DNA of 51,275 bases, taken from the NCBI GenBank assembly GCA_020693165.1, contig JAIMJQ010000007.1, positions 1 to 51,275 on the forward strand, given 5' to 3'. Shown here one piece after another: positions 1,597 to 44,574 of this stretch. Made by a program: the position numbers and the translations under genes. How positions within the stretch are numbered: the stretch's first letter is position 1; the number at the start of each line of letters is the position of its first letter. Source of the stretch: Xanthomonas sp. Its GTDB lineage: Bacteria; Pseudomonadota; Gammaproteobacteria; Xanthomonadales; SZUA-5. Under the pieces are notes generated by a model. The model was not told where the DNA came from. It was given only the letters and a program-made list of their open reading frames with translations, and did no database searches.

Positions 1597-2382
1597 TTAT
1601 CCGGTCTCGTTTGCTGCCAACACCCTGCCCGCAAACTCTGCGAACAAGTTGCGCATGCTGGTCGCCGCCGACAGCGGTCGACACGTCTCGGTGCCGGCTA
1701 CGCTCAGTTCGAGCGCTGCCGCGCTGTACAGGCGCCGCTCGACCAGGCGCTCGCACAGGAGTTGGTAGCGACGCGCATAGGAGGCGCCGTTGAACTCGGG
1801 GAACACGGGGAAGTGCGGTTCGGCGCAGCGGACGGGTGTCAGTGAGCGCAGGTTTTCTTCGAGCAGCATCAGCCAGCCGACGAACGGCGGTCGTGGGTCG
1901 GCCTGGTAGATCGGGTTGAGCAGCGCGGGCGAGCCTTCGCCGATGTCGTTGCGTGGCGCTGGTCGGTGGCCATAGGCGCCCTGGTGATGCGCGACCCAGA
2001 GGTCGGCAGCGGAGCCGATGACTTCTTCGCTGCGGTTGTTGAAGTTGTTGCCGAACGATCCGACCTGCGACTTGAACTCGAACACGCCGAGCAGGCGTTG
2101 CTTGTGGATGACCACCGCGTCCCAGTCCTTGGTCGCCCGGAAGAACCCCGGCAGCGCCACTTTGGACTTCTTGCGATGGACCGCATCGGTCGGCAGTCCG
2201 CAGTGCGCTGCGACCTGGTCGACCAGGTCAATGAACCCGTTCATGTTCTGGCCGCCGACGACGCCGTCACGCGTTCCGCCTTGTTTGCGCTCGATGGGGG
2301 TTCCCGACCGGCCGGTCCAGAACGTCCGCACGGCAGCGTTCACCCGCTCGTCAAAATCCTCCGGCAACAAGCTCAGCGTCAT
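1597..2382 (-). CDS. type II restriction endonuclease, PaeR7I/XhoI-like (PD-(D/E)xK)
   Basis: 261 aa. Motifs [20 protein letters not shown] and [29 protein letters not shown] match my recollection of the PaeR7I-family REase signature. The ATG overlaps the stop of the upstream methyltransferase ORF (ATGA at 2379-2382). Confidence 0.6.
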
Positions 2383-3458
2383 TCGCGTCGGTTCCTGCGC
2401 TTGGCAGTCACTTGTGCCTCTGCCGCCATCTGGCGCGTGCGTTCGGCATCGTCGGCGGACAGGCCGTAGAGCCGAAACACCGGCTCATCGATAGCCTGCT
2501 GATCCTTGGCGCAGGCGACTTGCGTCAGTTCATCGCGCAATGCCGGCGGCACATCGTGCCAGCGCGGGATGCGGATGCGCCGCAGGTACTGGGCCTGGAA
2601 CCGCAGGAACCCGCCGGACATGCGCGTGCAGTAGGTGGCGACCAGCAGCACGGTCACCGACGAACGCAGCACCGCCTGCAGCGCGCGCAGATCCCATTGC
2701 GTCGAGGTCACGTAATAGAGGTTGTGGTGCGGGTAGAAGTGACCCTCGTCGAGCACGAACGTGGCTTCGCCCTTGATGTCCGGCACCAAGAGCTTCGGCT
2801 GCTGCTGCAGTTCGGGATAAATGCGATCGATGGTGCGATACCAGGCGTCGCCGTTCTTGGTTGCCACGTGACGACCGGCCACGGCCTCATAGTGCTGGTA
2901 GAGATAGGTCGACAGCTTCGGGTAGTCGGCCAGATCGACGACGCCGCCTTCCGCCATAAACGGGTTGACCACACCCTTGCCGCCCCAGCGGATCTGCCCG
3001 TCGACCAGATCGCGCGCCATCACCAGCGGCAGCTTGCGGCTGGCCTCGACCGGCAGCTCGCCGAGTTCGCCGATGTACACGCGATCGCAGCCGGTGGCGA
3101 CGCCGATCCCGACCTTGCAGCCGACCTGTTCCAGCGTCGGGAACTGCTGTTCCAGGCGGCGCACCAGATCCAGGCGCGTCAGATCATCGAGGAGCCAGGG
3201 CGTCTCGCCCGATCCCGCCAGCGAGATCTCGCCGACGATGGCCGCGTCGGCATGCGCGGCGAGCATCGCCGCCACCAACTGCGGCAACCCATGTTCATCG
3301 GTGATGACGCCGGGACGAGCGACCCGCGTGGACGCGGCGGCATCGGTGCTGCCCGCCGCTCGCTGGATCACGGTGATCGCGGGATAGGCGATGACCTCGG
3401 AGTGGAAGGCGTCGATGCCTTCCATGTCGATGTAGTGCTGCAGCGCAAACCCGCGCAC
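2379..3458 (-). pseudogene. N6-adenine DNA methyltransferase, 5'-truncated (only the TaqI_C/Eco57I-like target-recognition half remains)
   Basis: 359 aa with hallmarks of the C-terminal half of gamma-class N6A methyltransferases ([62 protein letters not shown]). No FxGxG or NPPY/F catalytic motifs. The frame hits a stop at 3498-3500, and homology-like sequence stops at about 3480, exactly where a tandem-repeat array begins. The track start is a GTG. Confidence 0.65.
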
Positions 3459-3480
3459 GATCTTGCCGCGCAGTGGGCCA

Positions 3481-3566
3481 CGAACAACAACGGACAGTCA
3501 AGAATCGAACAACAACGGACGAACAACGAACAACAACGGACAGTGAAGAATCAGAATTTTCCTACA
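3481..3566 (+). repeat. Tandem array (CGAACAACAACGGAC-type units, 25-nt unit CGAACAACAACGGACAGTSAAGAAT x2) plus the GAATCAGAATTTTCCTACA module
   Basis: Read directly: 3481-3505 and 3528-3551 are near-identical, with partial units in between. The 19-mer at 3548-3566 repeats 761-779. Confidence 0.8.
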
Positions 3567-3622
3567 TGCCATTGGGCTGATCCCTAACTGCGCCAAAGCG
3601 CCGAAGCGCCGATGCTTCTCCC

Positions 3623-4651
3623 ATGGCTTACGCCCGCTCGATCCTCGTTCCGCCCGGCTTGCCCGGCACCTACCATTGCGTGTCGCGCTGTGTGCGCCGC
3701 GCGTGGCTGTGTGGCGAGGATCGCGGCAGCGGCCGTTCCTACGAGCACAGACGGCAATGGGTCGAAGACAGGATCGGCGAACTCACCGGGATCTTCGCGG
3801 TCGCCGTCTGGGGGTACGCGGTGATGAGCAACCATTTGCATGTGGTGGTGCAGGTGATCCCGCAAGCGGCCGCCGCTTGGTCGACTGAGGACGTGGCCGC
3901 GAGATGGTGTCGCCTGTATCCGCGTCGGGATCAAGACGCCAGCATGCGGGCCGAGGCGCTGGCCGGAAACGAAGGACGGATCAAAGAGCTGCGAGGGCGC
4001 TTGTGCGATTTGTCCTGGTTCATGCGCTGCCTGGCCGAACCGATCGCTCGACGCGCAAACCGCGAGGACGGTTGCAAGGGGCATTTCTGGGAGGCGCGCT
4101 TCAAGTGCCAGGCTCTGCTTGACGAGATGGCAGTGTTGTCGGCGATGACCTACGTCGACCTCAATCCGGTTCGAGCCAGGATCTGCGACAGCCTCGAGGA
4201 GTCTGCGCACACGTCAGCCAGGGTTCGCCTCGACGTGATCGAGAAGGATCGACAGCAGATCGATCAGCCCTTGGCCCCGGTCTTGGGCTTGCGGGGATTC
4301 GGTGTGCTGACGCTCAAGCAGCGCGACTACCTGGAACTCGTCGACTACACGGGTCGCCAGATTCACCCTGGCAAGCGCGGCGCCATTTCCGGCCCGCCGC
4401 CGGCTGCGCTGGCGCGGATCGGTTACACGAAGGATCAGTGGCAACGCCAGGTACTTGCGGTCGGCGCGGGATACTTCCGGGCGATCGGTGCTGCTGACGT
4501 TCTGATCGAGAAAGCGCAGGAAATCGATCAGGCGTGGCTTCGGGGCAACGGCATCGCACGGCAGCTCAAGCTCCGGAGCCGCATGCACGGAACCGCATGG
4601 AATAGAATACTCGACTGTCCGGAGCCCGAAGACCCGATTGTCCGGAGCTGA
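3623..4651 (+). CDS. REP-associated tyrosine transposase (RAYT; IS200/IS605-like Y1 HUH transposase, COG1943-type)
   Basis: 342 aa. HUH motif in AVMSNHLHVVVQV and catalytic-Tyr motif MTYVDLNPVRARI. ATG at 3623. Confidence 0.85.
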   Translation: MAYARSILVPPGLPGTYHCVSRCVRRAWLCGEDRGSGRSYEHRRQWVEDRIGELTGIFAVAVWGYAVMSNHLHVVVQVIPQAAAAWSTEDVAARWCRLYPRRDQDASMRAEALAGNEGRIKELRGRLCDLSWFMRCLAEPIARRANREDGCKGHFWEARFKCQALLDEMAVLSAMTYVDLNPVRARICDSLEESAHTSARVRLDVIEKDRQQIDQPLAPVLGLRGFGVLTLKQRDYLELVDYTGRQIHPGKRGAISGPPPAALARIGYTKDQWQRQVLAVGAGYFRAIGAADVLIEKAQEIDQAWLRGNGIARQLKLRSRMHGTAWNRILDCPEPEDPIVRS

Positions 4652-4796
4652 AGACCAAGAGCCGAAGACCAAGAGCCGAAGACCTACTTCGAAGACCTGC
4701 TTCAAGATGTTCGATGCGCGAATACGCGCAACGACAGGGCGACCGGGACTCCTGCAGGGCACGCTTTTCCGACACCACGCATGGCACTTTTCTGAC
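4627..4796 (+). repeat. Tandem array (GAAGACCAAGAGCC x2 plus GAAGACC partials), conserved TGTTCG core (4707-4752) and GGGCACGCTTTTCCGAC module
   Basis: The array overlaps the RAYT stop codon (4649-4651). The core ATGTTCGATGCGCGAATACGCGCAACGACAGGGCGACCGGGACTCC aligns with 9022-9072 and with the reverse complement of 14369-14426. Confidence 0.8.
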
Positions 4797-8797: not shown

Positions 8798-8800
8798 ATC

Positions 8801-8818
8801 GGGACTCTCACCGAACAT
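8801..8818 (+). repeat. Isolated terminal segment of the TGTTCG core (GGGACTCTCACCGAACAT)
   Basis: Identical to the reverse complement of 14370-14387. Lies 3 nt after the TrmB-like stop codon. Confidence 0.7.
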
Positions 8819-8859
8819 AACGTAAGCAATTGATTTGAGTGGATTAAAAGTTCATCACT

Positions 8860-9008
8860 CCGTTCACTCTGAGCAAAGCGTCCGACGCTTTATCGGTACG
8901 CACAATCGATTGCCCTGAGCCTGTCGAAGGGCGAAGGGTGGCGCGCACCGTCACCCTTCGACGGCGCGTCCCGGTGCAGCTCCGGGACGCTCTGCTCAGG
9001 GCGAACGG
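8860..9008. repeat. MITE-like element bounded by 24-nt imperfect terminal inverted repeats, with a nested heptamer-armed hairpin
   Basis: Left arm CCGTTCACTCTGAGCAAAGCGTCC (8860-8883). The right arm (8985-9008) reads CCGTTCGCCCTGAGCAGAGCGTCC on the other strand. Inner hairpin at 8923-8962: GTCGAAGGG CGAAGGG TG..CACCCTTCGAC. The same TIR family occurs at 44359-44574. Confidence 0.75.
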
Positions 9009-9021
9009 TGGGGAAGTGAGC

Positions 9022-9072
9022 CAGTTCGATGCGCCAATAGGCGCACCGGCCAAGGGCGGCCGGGACTTTCAC
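9022..9072 (+). repeat. Conserved TGTTCG core copy
   Basis: CAGTTCGATGCGCCAATAGGCGCACCGGCCAAGGGCGGCCGGGACTTTCAC aligns with 4707-4752 and with the reverse complement of 14369-14426. Its end overlaps the GNAT stop codon (9069-9071). Confidence 0.75.
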
Positions 9073-9551
9073 AAATCCAGCAAATAGAACCGGTTGCAGC
9101 CAAAATGTCCGGTGTTGCCGAGTGCCGCCGGGATGCGCTGGAAGCCGACGTGCTCATACAGTCTCTGGGCAAGGTCCATGCCGGTCAGCGTTTCCAGATA
9201 GCACTGGGCATAGCCCGCTTCGCGCGCGAAGGCGAGGCACTGGCGCATCAGCGCGCTGCCGGCACCGATCCCGCGCAGGCCGGGCAGGATGTACATCTTG
9301 CGCAACTCGCAGATCCGGCTGTCGCCTGCGGTCAGCGGCGCGATGCCGCCGCCGCCCTCGATGCGACCTTCGCGTTCGATGACGAAATAGCGGTGGCCAG
9401 CGGCCGCGTAGGCCTGGCTCATCGCCTCCACTTCCGGATCGTGGATCGCGAAGCCGGGACCGTCGGCGCCGAACTCGGGCATCACACTGCGGATGATTGC
9501 CGCCATCGCGGCGTCGTCGGCCGCCTCGATCGGGCGAATGCGAAAGCTCAT
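9069..9551 (-). CDS. GNAT family N-acetyltransferase
   Basis: 160 aa from MSFRIRPIEA. Acetyl-CoA motif LRGIGAGSALM. The ATG overlaps the cyanophycinase stop (ATGA at 9549-9553). The 350-aa track ORF is an out-of-frame read-through into cphE. Confidence 0.8.
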   Translation of the reverse strand: MSFRIRPIEAADDAAMAAIIRSVMPEFGADGPGFAIHDPEVEAMSQAYAAAGHRYFVIEREGRIEGGGGIAPLTAGDSRICELRKMYILPGLRGIGAGSALMRQCLAFAREAGYAQCYLETLTGMDLAQRLYEHVGFQRIPAALGNTGHFGCNRFYLLDL

Positions 9552-14280: not shown

Positions 14281-14368
14281 GATCAACCCTGTGCTGCTGC
14301 CGATCGGGCTGATGCTGGCGGCGTTGAAGGCGGCAATCAAGGGTTGCAGCCAAGGCATCTGGTTTCGG

Positions 14369-14426
14369 CATGTTCGGTGAGAGTCCCGGTCGCCCCTGAC
14401 GGTGCGCCTATTCGCGCATCGAACAG
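14369..14426 (-). repeat. Conserved TGTTCG core, most complete copy (58 nt, inverted termini TGTTCGGTGAG / TGCGCATCGAACA-type)
   Basis: The minus strand reads CTGTTCGATGCGCGAATAGGCGCACCGTCAGGGGCGACCGGGACTCTCACCGAACATG. Confidence 0.8.
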
Positions 14427-14432
14427 TGGAGC

Positions 14433-14512
14433 GCACGAGGGCACGAGGGCACGAGGGCACGCAAAGGAAGATTCGGAGCAAGCTTCAGCTCATTCGTGCC
14501 CTCGTGCCCTCG
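14433..14512. repeat. Hairpin with tandem-octamer arms: (GCACGAGG)x3 ... (CCTCGTGC)x2
   Basis: Units at 14433-14456, complementary units at 14495-14512, about 38-nt spacer. Immediately adjacent to the core at 14369-14426. Confidence 0.8.
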
Positions 14513-14542
14513 AAGTTTGTGCCATACAATTCAATGATCTAT

Positions 14543-14576
14543 GGCATGTTCGGTGAGGGTGTCTGGCGCACATGCC
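14543..14576 (+). repeat. Partial core-like hairpin GGCATGTTCGGTGAGGGTGTCTGGCGCACATGCC
   Basis: Shares ATGTTCGGTGAG with the core start. GGCATGT and ACATGCC form a stem. Confidence 0.55.
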
Positions 14577-15014: not shown

Positions 15015-15102
15015 AGGACGCCGTCGCCGACTGCCGAGTTGAGCAGGTAACAGGACGGGCGCTGCGCTGGTGGCAGCGGGCTTCGCCCGCAATGCTGCTT
15101 GA
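15011..15102 (+). repeat. REP-like structured segment beginning with GTAG that contains the yerC-like stop codon
   Basis: GTAGAGGACGCC...GCGCTGCGCTGGTGGCAGCGGGCTTCGCCCGCAATGCTGCT has nested short stems (CGCTGC/GCAGCG, GCGGGC/GCCCGC). The TAG at 15012-15014 lies inside GTAG. Confidence 0.55.
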
Positions 15103-15207
15103 CCAGCAACCAGCAACCAGCAACCAACATCCATCAACCAACAACCAACAACCAACAACCAACAACCAACATCCAACAACCGACAACCGACAACCGACAA
15201 CCATCAA
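15103..15207 (+). repeat. CA-rich microsatellite-like array: (CAGCAA/CAACCA/CAACAA)n then (CAACCGA)x3
   Basis: About 105 nt of 6- and 7-nt units ending 10 nt before the hisG ATG (15217). No Shine-Dalgarno sequence in between. Confidence 0.85.
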
Positions 15208-15216
15208 TCGCCCCCA

Positions 15217-16116
15217 ATGACCAAGCCCAGAGACAGACTTCGCATCGCCGTGCAGAAATCCGGTCGACTTTCCGAGTCGTCGCAGGACCTGCTGGCGCGC
15301 TGCGGACTGAAGTTCCGCCAGAGTCGCGACAAGCTGTTCTGCTTCGGCGAGAGTCTGCCGATCGACCTGCTGCTGGTGCGCGACGACGACATTCCCGGGC
15401 TGATTGCGCAGGGCGTGTGTGAGCTCGGCATCGTCGGCCGCAATGTCGCCAGTGAGCAGAGTATTGGCGCTGGCGCCGAAGGAGCGGCAGCCTTCGTCGA
15501 ACTGCGGGAACTCGGGTTCGGCCGTTGCCGGCTGTCGATCGCAGTGCCGCAGGAAGATGCGTATGTCGGGCCCGAGGATCTCGCGGGTCTCCGCATCGCG
15601 ACCAGCTACCCGCACCTGCTGGGCGAGTTCTTGCGCAGCAACGGAGTCGATGCCGAGATCGTCGTCCTCAACGGCTCGGTCGAGATTGCGCCGCGCCTCG
15701 GTACTGCGGATGTGATCTGCGATCTGGTGCAGTCCGGCGGAACCTTGGTCGCCAACCAGCTGCGCGAGGTCGTTTCCATTCTCGACAGCGAAGCGGTTCT
15801 GATCGGAGCGCGCCAGGACTATGCCGACGAGCGCGCGGATCTGCGCGATTTGCTGTTGCGACGTATCGACGGTGTCATCCGCGTGCGCGAATCCAAGCTG
15901 GTGTTGTTCCAGGTCGATGCGGCGCGCCTGGCGGATGTCCTGGCGGTGCTGCCCAAGGGCGATCCAGCTGCAGTCAGCCGACTGCAAACCCCGCTGAGCA
16001 CGCTGTCGGTACAGGCGGTCTGCCACGAGGCCATCACCTGGCAGCACCTTGAAGACCTGAAGCGCGCCGGCGCTGCCCACCTGCTGGTGGTACCGGTGGA
16101 GAAAATGCTGGCATGA
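15217..16116 (+). CDS. hisG: ATP phosphoribosyltransferase (long form)
   Basis: 299 aa. N-terminus LRIAVQKSGRLSE with a C-terminal regulatory domain. First gene of the his cluster. Confidence 0.9.
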   Translation: MTKPRDRLRIAVQKSGRLSESSQDLLARCGLKFRQSRDKLFCFGESLPIDLLLVRDDDIPGLIAQGVCELGIVGRNVASEQSIGAGAEGAAAFVELRELGFGRCRLSIAVPQEDAYVGPEDLAGLRIATSYPHLLGEFLRSNGVDAEIVVLNGSVEIAPRLGTADVICDLVQSGGTLVANQLREVVSILDSEAVLIGARQDYADERADLRDLLLRRIDGVIRVRESKLVLFQVDAARLADVLAVLPKGDPAAVSRLQTPLSTLSVQAVCHEAITWQHLEDLKRAGAAHLLVVPVEKMLA

Positions 16117-18599: not shown

Positions 18600-19661
18600 A
18601 TGCGCAAGATCCTCTTCATCGACCGCGACGGCACGCTGATCGAAGAACCTGCCGACGAGCAGATCGATTCTTTCGACAAGCTGCGCCTGTTGCCTGACGT
18701 CATCGTGCCGCTCCGGCGCCTTGCCGACGCCGGCTATGAGCTGGTCATGGTGACCAATCAGGATGGACTTGGGACCGCGAGCTTCCCGGAGCTATCGTTC
18801 TGGCCGGCGCACAACCTGCTGCTGCACATCCTCGAGTCGCAGGGGATCGGCTTTGCGGCGATCCGCATCGACCGGCATTTTCCGCACGAGGCCAGTGATA
18901 CGCGCAAGCCGAAGGTCGGGCTGATGCTCGATTACCTTGCCGACCCGGGTTGGGATCGCAGCCGCAGCGCGGTGATCGGCGATCGCGATACCGATCTGGA
19001 GTTCGCGAAGAACCTCGGCGTTGCCGGAATCCGCTGTGGTCCCAAGGGTCTGTCGTGGCCGCAGATCGCGCGGCAACTGCTGGATGCGCCGCGGATCGCG
19101 CAGATCGTGCGCGCTACCAGGGAAACCCGGATCGAAGTTTGCGTCGATCTCGACGCGGAGACTGCGCCGGAAATCAGTACCGGTCTGGGATTCTTCGATC
19201 ACATGCTGGAGCAACTCGGCAAGCACGGCGGTTTCGGCCTGAAGCTGAAATGCGTTGGCGACCTGCATATCGACGAGCACCACACCGTCGAGGACTCGGC
19301 GCTGGCGCTCGGGCAGGCGCTGAAGCAGGCGCTCGGGGACAAGCGCGGCATCGGTCGTTATGGCTTCACGTTGCCGATGGACGAGACGCTGGCGCAGGCG
19401 GCGCTCGATCTGTCCGGGCGGGCCTGGCTGGAGTTCGACGGCAAGTTCCCGCGCGAGCGCGTCGGCGAGTTGCCGACTGAACTGGTGCCGCATTTCTTCC
19501 GTTCCCTGTGTGACACGCTGGGCGCCAACCTGCATCTGACGGTGCGCGGCGACAACGCCCATCACATGGTCGAAGCCTGCTTCAAGGTGGTCGCACGCAC
19601 CTTCAGGCAGGCGTTCAGGCGCGACGGCGATGTGTTGCCGAGCACCAAGGGCGTGCTGTGA
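18600..19661 (+). CDS. hisB: bifunctional histidinol-phosphatase / imidazoleglycerol-phosphate dehydratase
   Basis: 353 aa. HAD motif [12 protein letters not shown], then IGPD motifs [14 protein letters not shown] and [11 protein letters not shown]. Confidence 0.95.
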
Positions 19662-20443
19662 GTACCGTCGTCGTCGATTCCGGCGTTGCCAACGTCGGCT
19701 CGGTGGTTGCGGCGCTGGAGCGGTTGCAGGCGAAAGTCATCATCAGTCGCGATTGGGAGGTGATCCGTCAGGCTGCTCGTGTCTTGCTCCCCGGCGTTGG
19801 CGCCGCGGCGGCGGCCATGCGTGAACTCGATCGGCTGGGGCTTGTCGAGCGGCTGCCGACGCTGACGCAACCGGTGCTCGGCGTGTGCCTGGGGATGCAG
19901 TTGATGTTCGAGGGGTCGGAGGAGGGCGGGGAGCTCGAAGCCGGGACTCGGGACTCGGGACTCGGGACTCGGGACTCGGCTGTTCAGAGTGAGAATGCAT
20001 CCCGGCTCGTGCGTGTGAATCTGCCGGATCATCGCGGCAGACTCCCCACTGGCCACCAACCCGAGTCCCGAGTCCCGAGTCCCGAGTCCCGGCGGTTGGC
20101 CGTCCCCTGCCTCGGTATCCTCCCCGGCCACGTTCGCCGCCTTCCCGAATCCCCCGGCGTACGCATCCCGCACATGGGCTGGAACGCGCTGATCCCGCGT
20201 CGACCGCATGCGCTGGTCGCCGGCCTTGGCGAGCGCGACTACGCCTATTTCGTGCACAGCTTTGGCGCCGCCGAGAGCGAGCTGACGCTGATGGCTTGCG
20301 AGCACGGCAGCACCTTCTCGGCGGTCGTCGCGCGTGGCAATTTCATGGGTGCGCAGTTCCATCCGGAGCGCTCGGCTGCTGTCGGGGCGCGCCTGCTCGA
20401 CAACTTCCTCAATCTCGATCTGGAGGCGCTCGGGCGATGTTGA
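19658..20443 (+). CDS. hisH: imidazole glycerol phosphate synthase, glutaminase subunit, with an in-frame insertion of about 57 aa
   Basis: 261 aa against about 200 aa typical. GVCLGMQL (catalytic Cys) and QFHPERS are present. Residues about 92-148 are encoded by a palindromic repeat element. GTG start overlapping the hisB stop. Confidence 0.85.
19943..20090. repeat. Intragenic palindromic element: (GGGACTC)x5, core, (GAGTCCC)x4
   Basis: Five perfect heptamers at 19943-19977 and four complementary heptamers at 20063-20090. The 85-nt centre starts CTGTTCAGAGTGAGAATGCATCCCGG, related to the TGTTCG core start. Confidence 0.85.
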
Positions 20444-26022: not shown

Positions 26023-26183
26023 GAATCAGGAAAAAGGAAAAGTCAGGAAAAAGGAAAACGGGGAAGCGGTGTGCGCCAGGTTCCGGGGTAGCTCGCATCG
26101 AACGCTGTGAAGGGCAGAACGGCAGAGGATGCTCGGGCAACCGCTGTTGCCTTCCCCCTTTTCCATTTTCCCTTTTTCCGGCT
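26023..26183. repeat. Palindromic element filling the whole guaA-tadA intergenic region: GGAAAA-rich tandem arms around a divergent core
   Basis: The left arm GAATCAGGAAAAAGGAAAAGTCAGGAAAAAGGAAAACGGGGAAGCGG (26023-26069) is imperfectly complementary to CCGCTGTTGCCTTCCCCCTTTTCCATTTTCCCTTTTTCCGGCTTC (26141-26185). The centre contains CGCATCGAAC, as in the core. Confidence 0.7.
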
Positions 26184-30460: not shown

Positions 30461-30536
<76 letters not shown>

Positions 30537-42583: not shown

Positions 42584-42668
42584 GAGCCTTGATTCCGTGA
42601 GCCTTGATTCCGTTCATGGTTCGACAGGCTCACCACGAACGGAATCAAGTCTTCGAGCGGAATCGAGG
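42584..42668. repeat. Palindromic element with 15-nt tandem arms (GAGCCTTGATTCCGT x2) around a mini TGTTCG-type core
   Basis: Units at 42584-42613. Centre TCATGGTTCGACAGGCTCACCACGAAC (stem GTTCG/CGAAC). The partly complementary arm GGAATCAAGTCTTCGAGCGGAATCGAGG ends 1 nt before the bpt stop. Confidence 0.7.
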
Positions 42669-44358: not shown

Positions 44359-44574
44359 CCGTTCGGTCTGAGCGTTTCCCGCGGGCCTGCGAGCGGGAGA
44401 TGGTCGAAGTACGCCCGCCGCGCAAGCGCGTGGCTCGCGCTTACGATGAGTAGTGATCTCCCAGGCCGCAAACGCGCAGGCTGCGCTACTTGCCGCTGGC
44501 ATCGAGCCCGGCCAGTTCGCGTCCTTCGACTGTTTCCCCCGGAACGGCACGGGGGAAACGCTCAGGACGAACGG
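44359..44574. repeat. MITE-like element (216 nt) bounded by 22-nt terminal inverted repeats of the CCGTTC..CTGAGC family
   Basis: CCGTTCGGTCTGAGCGTTTCCC (44359-44380) against the reverse complement of 44553-44574, CCGTTCGTCCTGAGCGTTTCCC (2 mismatches). Same TIR family as 8860-9008. Confidence 0.7.
44532..44559 (-). terminator. Perfect 10-bp GC-rich hairpin downstream of trmJ
   Basis: GTTTCCCCCG-gaacggca-CGGGGGAAAC. No U tract, and it overlaps the right TIR of the MITE-like element. Confidence 0.35.

Follow-up and report, generated by a model that had tools for sequence, protein, structure and literature searches.

The window analysed here, the whole stretch of 51,275 nucleotides, has a GC content of 65%, and its nearest sequenced relatives are Rhodanobacteraceae/Lysobacterales MAGs. 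Near its start, at 1597-3458 on the minus strand, a gene for an XhoI-like restriction endonuclease (PF04555) and a methyltransferase-like ORF that has a TaqI_C specificity domain share 4 nt. Next to this pair is a RAYT-like Y1/HUH gene (3480-4651; 342 aa, with HLH and YVDLNPV motifs). This gene has inverted flanks, CGGACAGTCAAGAATC upstream and GACTGTCCGGAG downstream, together with a conserved leader of about 100 nt that is common to its homologues in Lysobacterales MAGs. In Endozoicomonas genomes the RAYT-like family is multicopy, and in this it resembles an IS more than a single-copy RAYT. Further along lie recQ; a convergent pair of methyltransferase and GNAT genes; genes for HMG-CoA lyase, HisG, and HisH; and a tRNA (30461-30533). 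In an Rfam scan of the window, tRNA alone scored at the gathering threshold.

Two short sequences recur in the window, each far above chance. The longer one, of about 52 nt, has three copies (4708-4756, 9023-9075, and 14374-14425); the other, a box of about 30 nt, has two (8805-8836 and 14528-14557). A 24-nt consensus of the core, allowed up to three mismatches, matches exactly three sites (4709, 9024, and, on the minus strand, 14401), against 0.00 expected by shuffling. Profile HMMs find the long copies (box R) with E = 4e-18, 6e-14, and 1e-13, and the two copies of the second box (box L) with E = 1e-8 and 2e-6. The first-pass annotation of this DNA had reported the three long copies, and the consensus scan and the profile HMM agree on where they lie. 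Both inverted repeats that it described, an internal TGCGC-N6-GCGCA and an 8-nt pair (GTTCGATG / CACCGAAC), were also found.

When box R is read as the left-end (LE) box and box L as the right-end (RE) box of an IS, a reading for which the evidence follows, the window contains the complete miniature elements A and B, a left-end box that stands alone, and the remnant of a right end. Miniature element A (8805..9072; 268 nt; IS orientation minus) consists of an RE box (8805-8836; CTCTCACCGAACATAACGTAAGCAATTGATTT), a long-palindrome cargo (8837-9021), and an LE box (9022-9072). It is defined by box HMM matches, by the inverted repeats of its cargo, and by a flanking 12-nt direct repeat (CGGGACTCTCAC / CGGGACTTTCAC). 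The element occupies the whole gap between the convergent stops of the methyltransferase and GNAT genes (TCA at 9069-9071). Miniature element B (14374..14557; about 184 nt; IS orientation plus; box HMM E = 4e-18 and 2e-6) consists of an LE box (14374-14425), a cargo hairpin (14426-14527), and an RE box (14528-14557), and the HMG-CoA lyase gene lies downstream. Its cargo arms, (GAGGGCAC)n and (GTGCCCTC)n, are perfectly inverted over 19 nt and belong to a class common to about 15 units elsewhere. The RE box of element B terminates (14551-14557) in GTGAGGG, not GTGAGAG; its core AG may be mutated and the element immobile.

The solo LE box (4708..4756; IS orientation minus; nhmmer E = 6e-14) reads GTTCGATGCGCGAATACGCGCAAC...CCGGGACTCCTGCA on the plus strand and sits between the RAYT-like gene and recQ. 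Its terminal CTCCTGC is the reverse complement of GCAGGAG, a target-type 7-mer. Neither the box HMM nor a search for inverted arms found a partner for it, be it an RE box or an inverted cargo arm: there is no L box upstream, and a 14-nt tandem repeat is without inverted partner. The right-end remnant (14366..14383, plus strand; CGGCATGTTCGGTGAGAG) is 18 nt long and matches model positions 1-18 of the L-box HMM (E = 1e-4). Together with the LE box of element B it mimics an RE-LE junction, as of a circle or a tandem, and R/L junctions identical to this one occur in 26-30 tandem arrays elsewhere. The "complete" 57-nt palindrome of the annotation, with its TGTTCG...CGAACA ends, is this junction (14366-14426): a 52-nt R box plus the abutting 18-nt L-box remnant, the latter having been read as the palindrome's 3' end. 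The same annotation listed six fragments of the core. Two of these (8801-8818, and 14543-14576, where the box itself spans 14528-14557) are real, as copies of box L and not as pieces of the core; an exact 19-nt match to the 3' end of the core lies at 8800-8818. With the remaining four (26068-26105, 19979-20010, 42614-42640, and 899-920) the box HMMs give E > 1 or nothing, and these are chance matches or members of other palindromic repeats.

A pool of repeats was gathered with an exact-pattern scan for core 22-mers, which yielded 69 metagenome contigs and 26 stretches from MAG contigs. The early description of a dispersed, structured, mobile-type module holds good. Pool copies were ascertained by the core 22-mer, which spans the hairpin of box R; most have A at two loop positions, and a genome scan pattern with S at those positions matched nothing. 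The repeat was absent from the 1.9 Mb of sequence that surrounds homologues of the RAYT or HMG-CoA-lyase genes; the family is narrow. Many of the core matches in the pool fall at contig ends, from which it follows that the boxes break assemblies.

Box R, of about 52 nt, has the consensus GTTCGATGCGCGAATAAGCGCACCGnCAGGGGCGACCGGGACTCYYRC; box L reads CTCTCACCGAACAT, followed by nnCGnAAGnnnnnTGAwww (about 18 nt). Profile HMMs detected 117 R boxes and 82 L boxes in the non-redundant pool. These form 65 units in the order box L, variable long hairpin, box R, and it is this arrangement of 117-368 nt, instead of the 57-nt palindrome, that is the true unit. About eight recurrent kinds of long palindrome serve as cargo. 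Units stand head to tail in arrays, with the 7-mer CTCTCAC shared between neighbours. On the left, conservation sets in sharply with CTCTCAC; on the right, it runs to the end of GGGACTCYYRC. Of the two edge 7-mers, the left is near invariant and the right varies at positions 4-6, and CTC/GAG is invariant at both edges. The variable part of box L co-varies with the class of cargo, and near-identical units are found at different loci in different flanks, which together indicate that units spread as wholes. In the left flanks of solitary units hardly anything is conserved apart from C(G/A), which amounts to less target information than is used by IS621. Cargo palindromes also occur at other loci without boxes, and a comparison of cargo with IS-internal sequence revealed no similarity.

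What the boxes belong to is visible at two loci (L237 and L231, with 1.69 kb of common sequence), where the 1.6 kb that separates L from R contains an ORF on the opposite strand. Its product matches Pfam PF01548 (DEDD_Tnp_IS110) and PF02371 (Transposase_20); NCBIfam NF033542, "IS110 family RNA-guided transposase" (243 bits; cutoff 140); and, weakly, the PDB entry for IS621 (8wt6; E = 3.5e-7 over about 80 aa). Box R lies about 225-229 nt upstream of the transposase ATG and box L about 13 nt past the stop (both as reverse complement), at different loci. This placement was seen in about 10 full-length relatives with both ends visible and 67-100% aa identity, some of which duplicate one another or run off a contig end. 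Copies with boxes at fixed distances include L257, L258, L259, L260, L261, and L208, and the diverged L273-L277; aa identity is 74-94% for L258, L259, L261, and L208, and 67-85% for L273-L277. The fixed placement of R and L around the transposase gene identifies them as the left and right ends of the IS.

The full element, of about 1.66 kb, comprises the LE box; about 225 nt of non-coding sequence; the gene for a 447-aa DEDD transposase; about 13 nt; and the RE box. The non-coding LE (about 277 nt) is much longer than the RE (about 45 nt), and the only inverted repeat is the 8-nt subterminal pair. A long LE and a short RE are the layout of an IS110 subgroup (PMC11208160). A DEDD + Tnp gene between the ends, the hallmark of the IS110 family, is present at related loci; the window is without such a gene, and tblastn with the IS110 transposase against a pooled database that includes the window gave no match in its 51 kb. 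Here and at many other loci are non-autonomous, MITE-like IS110 derivatives: both end boxes are kept, and the transposase gene is absent. The pair CATCAAAC/GTTTGGTG is found in full-length copies and the pair CATCGAAC/GTTCGGTG in most miniatures, a compensated change in the 8-nt subterminal inverted repeat. Given this difference, the sampled ISs may not be the exact mobilisers of the miniatures.

Several contigs with IS or boxes (L258, L259, L236, L239, and L250) are binned as Bifidobacteriaceae, Verrucomicrobia, Gemmatimonadales, Rhodocyclaceae, and Burkholderiales MAGs. The two that carry a full-length IS are short (1.7 and 3.6 kb), and mis-binning of the repeat is therefore likelier than a wide host range.

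Read in IS orientation, the element has GTGAGAG at either boundary, with an invariant AG suffix, and the LE contains two further 7-mers. In the LE of L257 both are GTGAGAG; two extra occurrences of this 7-mer were reached in 5 of 100,000 shuffles. Guide (i), in the context CCCGC-N7-TTTGG, equals the left flanking 7-mer in diverged copies: guide and flank are GTGAGAG and GTGAGAG in L257 and L259, GTGGGAG and GTGGGAG in L273, and GTAGGAG and GTAGGAG in L276, and in L277 a TTCAGAG guide accompanies a visible ..AGAG. Guide (ii), in the context CCTCGY-N7-AYTGA, equals the terminal 7-mer of the RE, the two being identical as GTGAGAG, as ATGAGAG (L273), and as GCAAGAG (L277). Left target and left donor guides thus match exactly, with three different 7-mers each, in a covariation that comprises few independent changes from about six lineages. 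In IS621, likewise, the left target guide and the left donor guide stand in a sense relation to target and donor, core included (PMC11208160).

All copies whose guide (i) is GTGAGAG (L257, L259, L260, and L261) sit directly after another RE box. Arrays form, on this logic, because the RE end of a resident copy is itself a target when target guide equals donor guide, and the left-edge 7-mer is constant because it is donor-derived. By the same logic, the right-edge 7-mers CTCCCAC, CTCCTAC, CTCCTGC, and CTCTCAC are the reverse complements of REP-head-like targets. Among the conserved stems of the LE fold, six show compensatory pairs when diverged copies are included; covariation was absent among five near-identical LEs. 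Complementarity searches gave no convincing assignment of the right-side guides (RTG and RDG), although a GGAACC match in L277, noticed by eye, is suggestive.

With a probability of roughly 0.88, then, the core is the outermost 52 bp or so of the non-coding LE of an unnamed IS110-family IS, box L is the RE of that IS, and the copies in the window are its miniatures. The annotation's judgement that the repeat is "not an IS" is overturned, since the core is the terminal box of an IS110-family IS and of its transposase-less miniatures. The host of the IS is uncultured Rhodanobacteraceae/Lysobacterales. All that the window holds is non-autonomous miniatures, with one of about eight kinds of long palindrome in place of the RNA and transposase genes. 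The scan covered the 51-kb window, which has no transposase gene, and an autonomous partner in the same genome is therefore unproven.

We infer the RNA itself, the circles, and mobilisation in trans, which would fit together as follows. The LE transcript would be a bridge RNA, its guides pairing with target and donor, and the recombinase would exchange strands at the AG core (CT on the strand of the original finding). Since miniatures retain the donor halves, they would be substrates for excision and insertion in trans. With GUGAGAG as both target guide and donor guide, new copies would land at the RE end of residents to give head-to-tail arrays; variant guides GUGGGAG or GUAGGAG would instead hit REP-head-like sites and produce the CTCCCAC, CTCCTAC, and CTCCTGC right edges.

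Site comparisons bear on this scheme. At the junction occupied by element A, a 93%-identical relative (L264:2977-3225) carries a (GCAAAGGAC)n-cargo element of another class. The junction is empty in two relatives at 84-86% (L267 and L270), with an unrelated spacer of 60-94 nt. Two different elements at one GNAT/methyltransferase junction, in L264 and in the window, suggest either precise excision and re-insertion or exchange at a single site. No clean filled/empty pair was found at >95% identity; L267 and L268 were considered as such a pair and dropped, both being occupied or degenerate. The genomic R/L junctions are consistent with, rather than proof of, excision as a double-stranded circle.

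Other explanations were weighed against an IS110-family origin. The stop codon of the RAYT-like ORF (3623-4651) lies 56 nt from the copy at 4708, and the ORF matches NCBIfam REP_Tyr_transpos with 34 bits (cutoff 80) and Pfam Y1_Tnp weakly, and has HxH and YxxxNPV motifs; the repeats could accordingly be REP/REPIN-type palindromes mobilised by this Y1 (HUH) transposase. However, RAYT-like homologues with 83-88% aa identity (L001-L003 and L019) have neither an R nor an L box, and others from Lysobacterales/Rhodanobacteraceae (60-71%; among L004-L018) are boxless even in MAGs that contain the repeat. The gene has conserved flanks of its own (GGACAGTCAAGAATC upstream and inverted downstream, and inverted GGACAGTC motifs), and one small fragment is all that matches its protein among the 69 core-pattern metagenome contigs. 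The repeat also lacks a GTAG head, and its boxes bound IS110 genes instead, in keeping with the original remark that it is not a classical 20-35-nt REP. The flanks of the homologues leave mobilisation by the RAYT-like protein a next to negligible chance; it is rejected, and the adjacency at 4708 is coincidental. Very unlikely, too, is a structured non-coding or cis-regulatory RNA (sRNA, leader, or terminator) with a host function independent of transposition. Such an RNA would suit the internal hairpin, with its G..C versus C..G difference between window copies, and the two of six folds with z of about -3; moreover, it is quite plausible that the IS non-coding RNA has the box, in transcribed form, as its 5' portion. 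But most core folds are no better than shuffles, and the core is absent from Rfam, a comparison that the annotation had proposed: no family matches at gathering or E-value thresholds, and E-value mode gave nothing credible for element A or the IS LE. Copies occur in either orientation and in varied settings (ahead of genes, in gaps flanked by convergent stops, and at the ends of contigs), and the sharp edges at a shared 7-mer, the tandem arrays, and the transposase linkage are features of mobile DNA.

Alternatively, L and R might not be IS ends at all: an IS110 element could have inserted into pre-existing L-hairpin-R repeats, or BIME-like mosaics could have been built in some other way. Members of the IS110 family do target repeats, often REP-like palindromes (PMC11208160, PMC12288879); several full-length copies here lie within arrays; and cargo palindromes are found boxless too. 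Yet no halves of a cargo flank the transposase gene, the spacing between box and gene is constant at different loci across 67-100% aa identity, and the match between L variable part and cargo class bespeaks units that spread whole. The RE terminal 7-mer, furthermore, covaries with the internal LE 7-mer, which makes the box terminus a donor end specified by the element. We regard this alternative as extremely unlikely. Three other models were discarded. The PATE of IS200/IS605, with a subterminal hairpin and a fixed left-flank motif, was dropped because the gene between the boxes is of IS110 type. An integron attC/Xer-type array would have the opposite organisation, for here the "cassette" part is conserved and the palindrome variable. 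A classical MITE would have terminal inverted repeats and a target-site duplication of variable sequence, whereas here the two ends are different boxes and the flanking 7-mer is fixed.

Enterobacterial REP/BIME mosaics and the BOX elements of Streptococcus pneumoniae are intergenic and modular, with conserved end modules, variable middles, and tandem clusters. BIMEs are linked to RAYT Y1 transposases; for BOX elements we know of no transposase. The present repeats share the intergenic modular layout and the tandem clusters, but neither BIME nor BOX is bounded by IS110 end boxes or by a fixed core dinucleotide.

An IS110-family origin has a closer precedent in ISPpu9 and MITEPpu9 of Pseudomonas putida KT2440 (Pares-Guillen et al., NAR 2025, PMC12288879). 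ISPpu9 has a 43-bp A box with an inverted repeat, a 16-bp B box, and a terminal AG; there are a transposase-less MITEPpu9, tandem arrangements, and minicircles (PMC12288879). Common to both systems are a long left box with a short inverted repeat; a short right box; an invariant AG at both boundaries; REP-like targets; and a transposase-less derivative with near-identical boxes, which in the case of MITEPpu9 is often in tandem with the IS. The box sequences, in contrast, are unrelated (transposases were not part of the comparison). MITEPpu9 carries one sRNA gene as cargo, whereas about eight classes of long palindromes are found here, and the miniatures far outnumber full-length copies (65 units versus a handful) and form multi-miniature arrays. 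Circles and trans-mobilisation are in the present case presumed. MITEs similar to an ISfinder entry labelled ISNme5_IS110 are also on record (PMC11602168). The repeat therefore belongs to a described kind, IS110 end boxes and their MITE-like derivatives, but not to a described sequence family; a literature search for the box sequences themselves returned nothing relevant.

IS621 (Durrant et al. 2024, PMC11208160; Hiraizumi et al. 2024, PMC11208158) offers the mechanistic parallel. It shares the DEDD + Tnp recombinase; an LE much longer than the RE; two LE segments of 7-9 nt that are sense-identical to target-left plus core and donor-left plus core (the LTG and LDG logic); a dinucleotide core; and short subterminal inverted repeats around the donor. 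Differences are the core, AG and not CT in IS orientation; a distant protein relationship; and a predicted RNA with differently placed guides and a closing stem around both guide domains. We know of no described counterpart in IS621 of the outer LE box of about 52 nt.

The IS is new and unnamed but of an already known type, and no new mechanism is involved. What sets it apart is how many and how diverse the miniatures are, that their cargo is palindromic, and that the variation of guides and targets is readable. A puzzling intergenic repeat of uncultured wastewater Rhodanobacteraceae finds its explanation in a bridge-RNA-type IS and the miniatures of that IS, whose ends it forms. The resulting natural data set on bridge recombinases comprises about 65 units, about eight cargo classes, and several guide variants; changes in the target guide (GUGAGAG, GUGGGAG, GUAGGAG, and UUCAGAG) can be compared with the sites of insertion, and the set lends itself to work on trans-mobilisation and on how arrays are built. 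A more speculative possibility, which we rate as doubtful, is that the family represents a large radiation of natural bridge-recombinase "mini-donors", in which host palindromes are captured, trans-mobilised, and self-arraying, with sister ISs retargeted to REP heads by single-base guide changes. The cargo would then be REPIN-like and tandem-repeat hairpins that transposase-less, RNA-less derivatives have captured repeatedly, a suggestion just as tentative. On this view the invariable hairpin shape of the cargo, lengthened by the 8-nt subterminal inverted pair, could itself be a requirement, perhaps for drawing the two ends together during excision. On a practical note, annotators are advised to mask the boxes, which can overlap stop codons or fall within promoter regions.

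Several other repeats in the window were noted in passing. A long imperfect palindrome at 44359-44574 (see also 42600-42660) has 56-nt arms that are 75% complementary, starts with CCGTTCGGTCTGAGC, and ends with GCTCAGGACGAACGG. By eye its termini are of the type seen in the cargo of element A, and it is without IS110 end boxes; cargo-type palindromes found boxless at other loci imply that they also exist as independent repeats. The hisH ORF (19658-20443) contains an in-frame insert of about 60 aa (19911-20108), located after a motif of 17 residues. This insert is encoded by a 198-nt palindrome with arms of (CGGGACT)n heptamers, and the HisH profile matches on either side of it. Finally, a (CAACCAR)n heptamer array (15088-15227) reaches the hisG ATG and 11 nt beyond, and in several metagenome contigs (L165, L182, L184, and L186 among them) arrays of the CAACCAA type adjoin the edges of elements.
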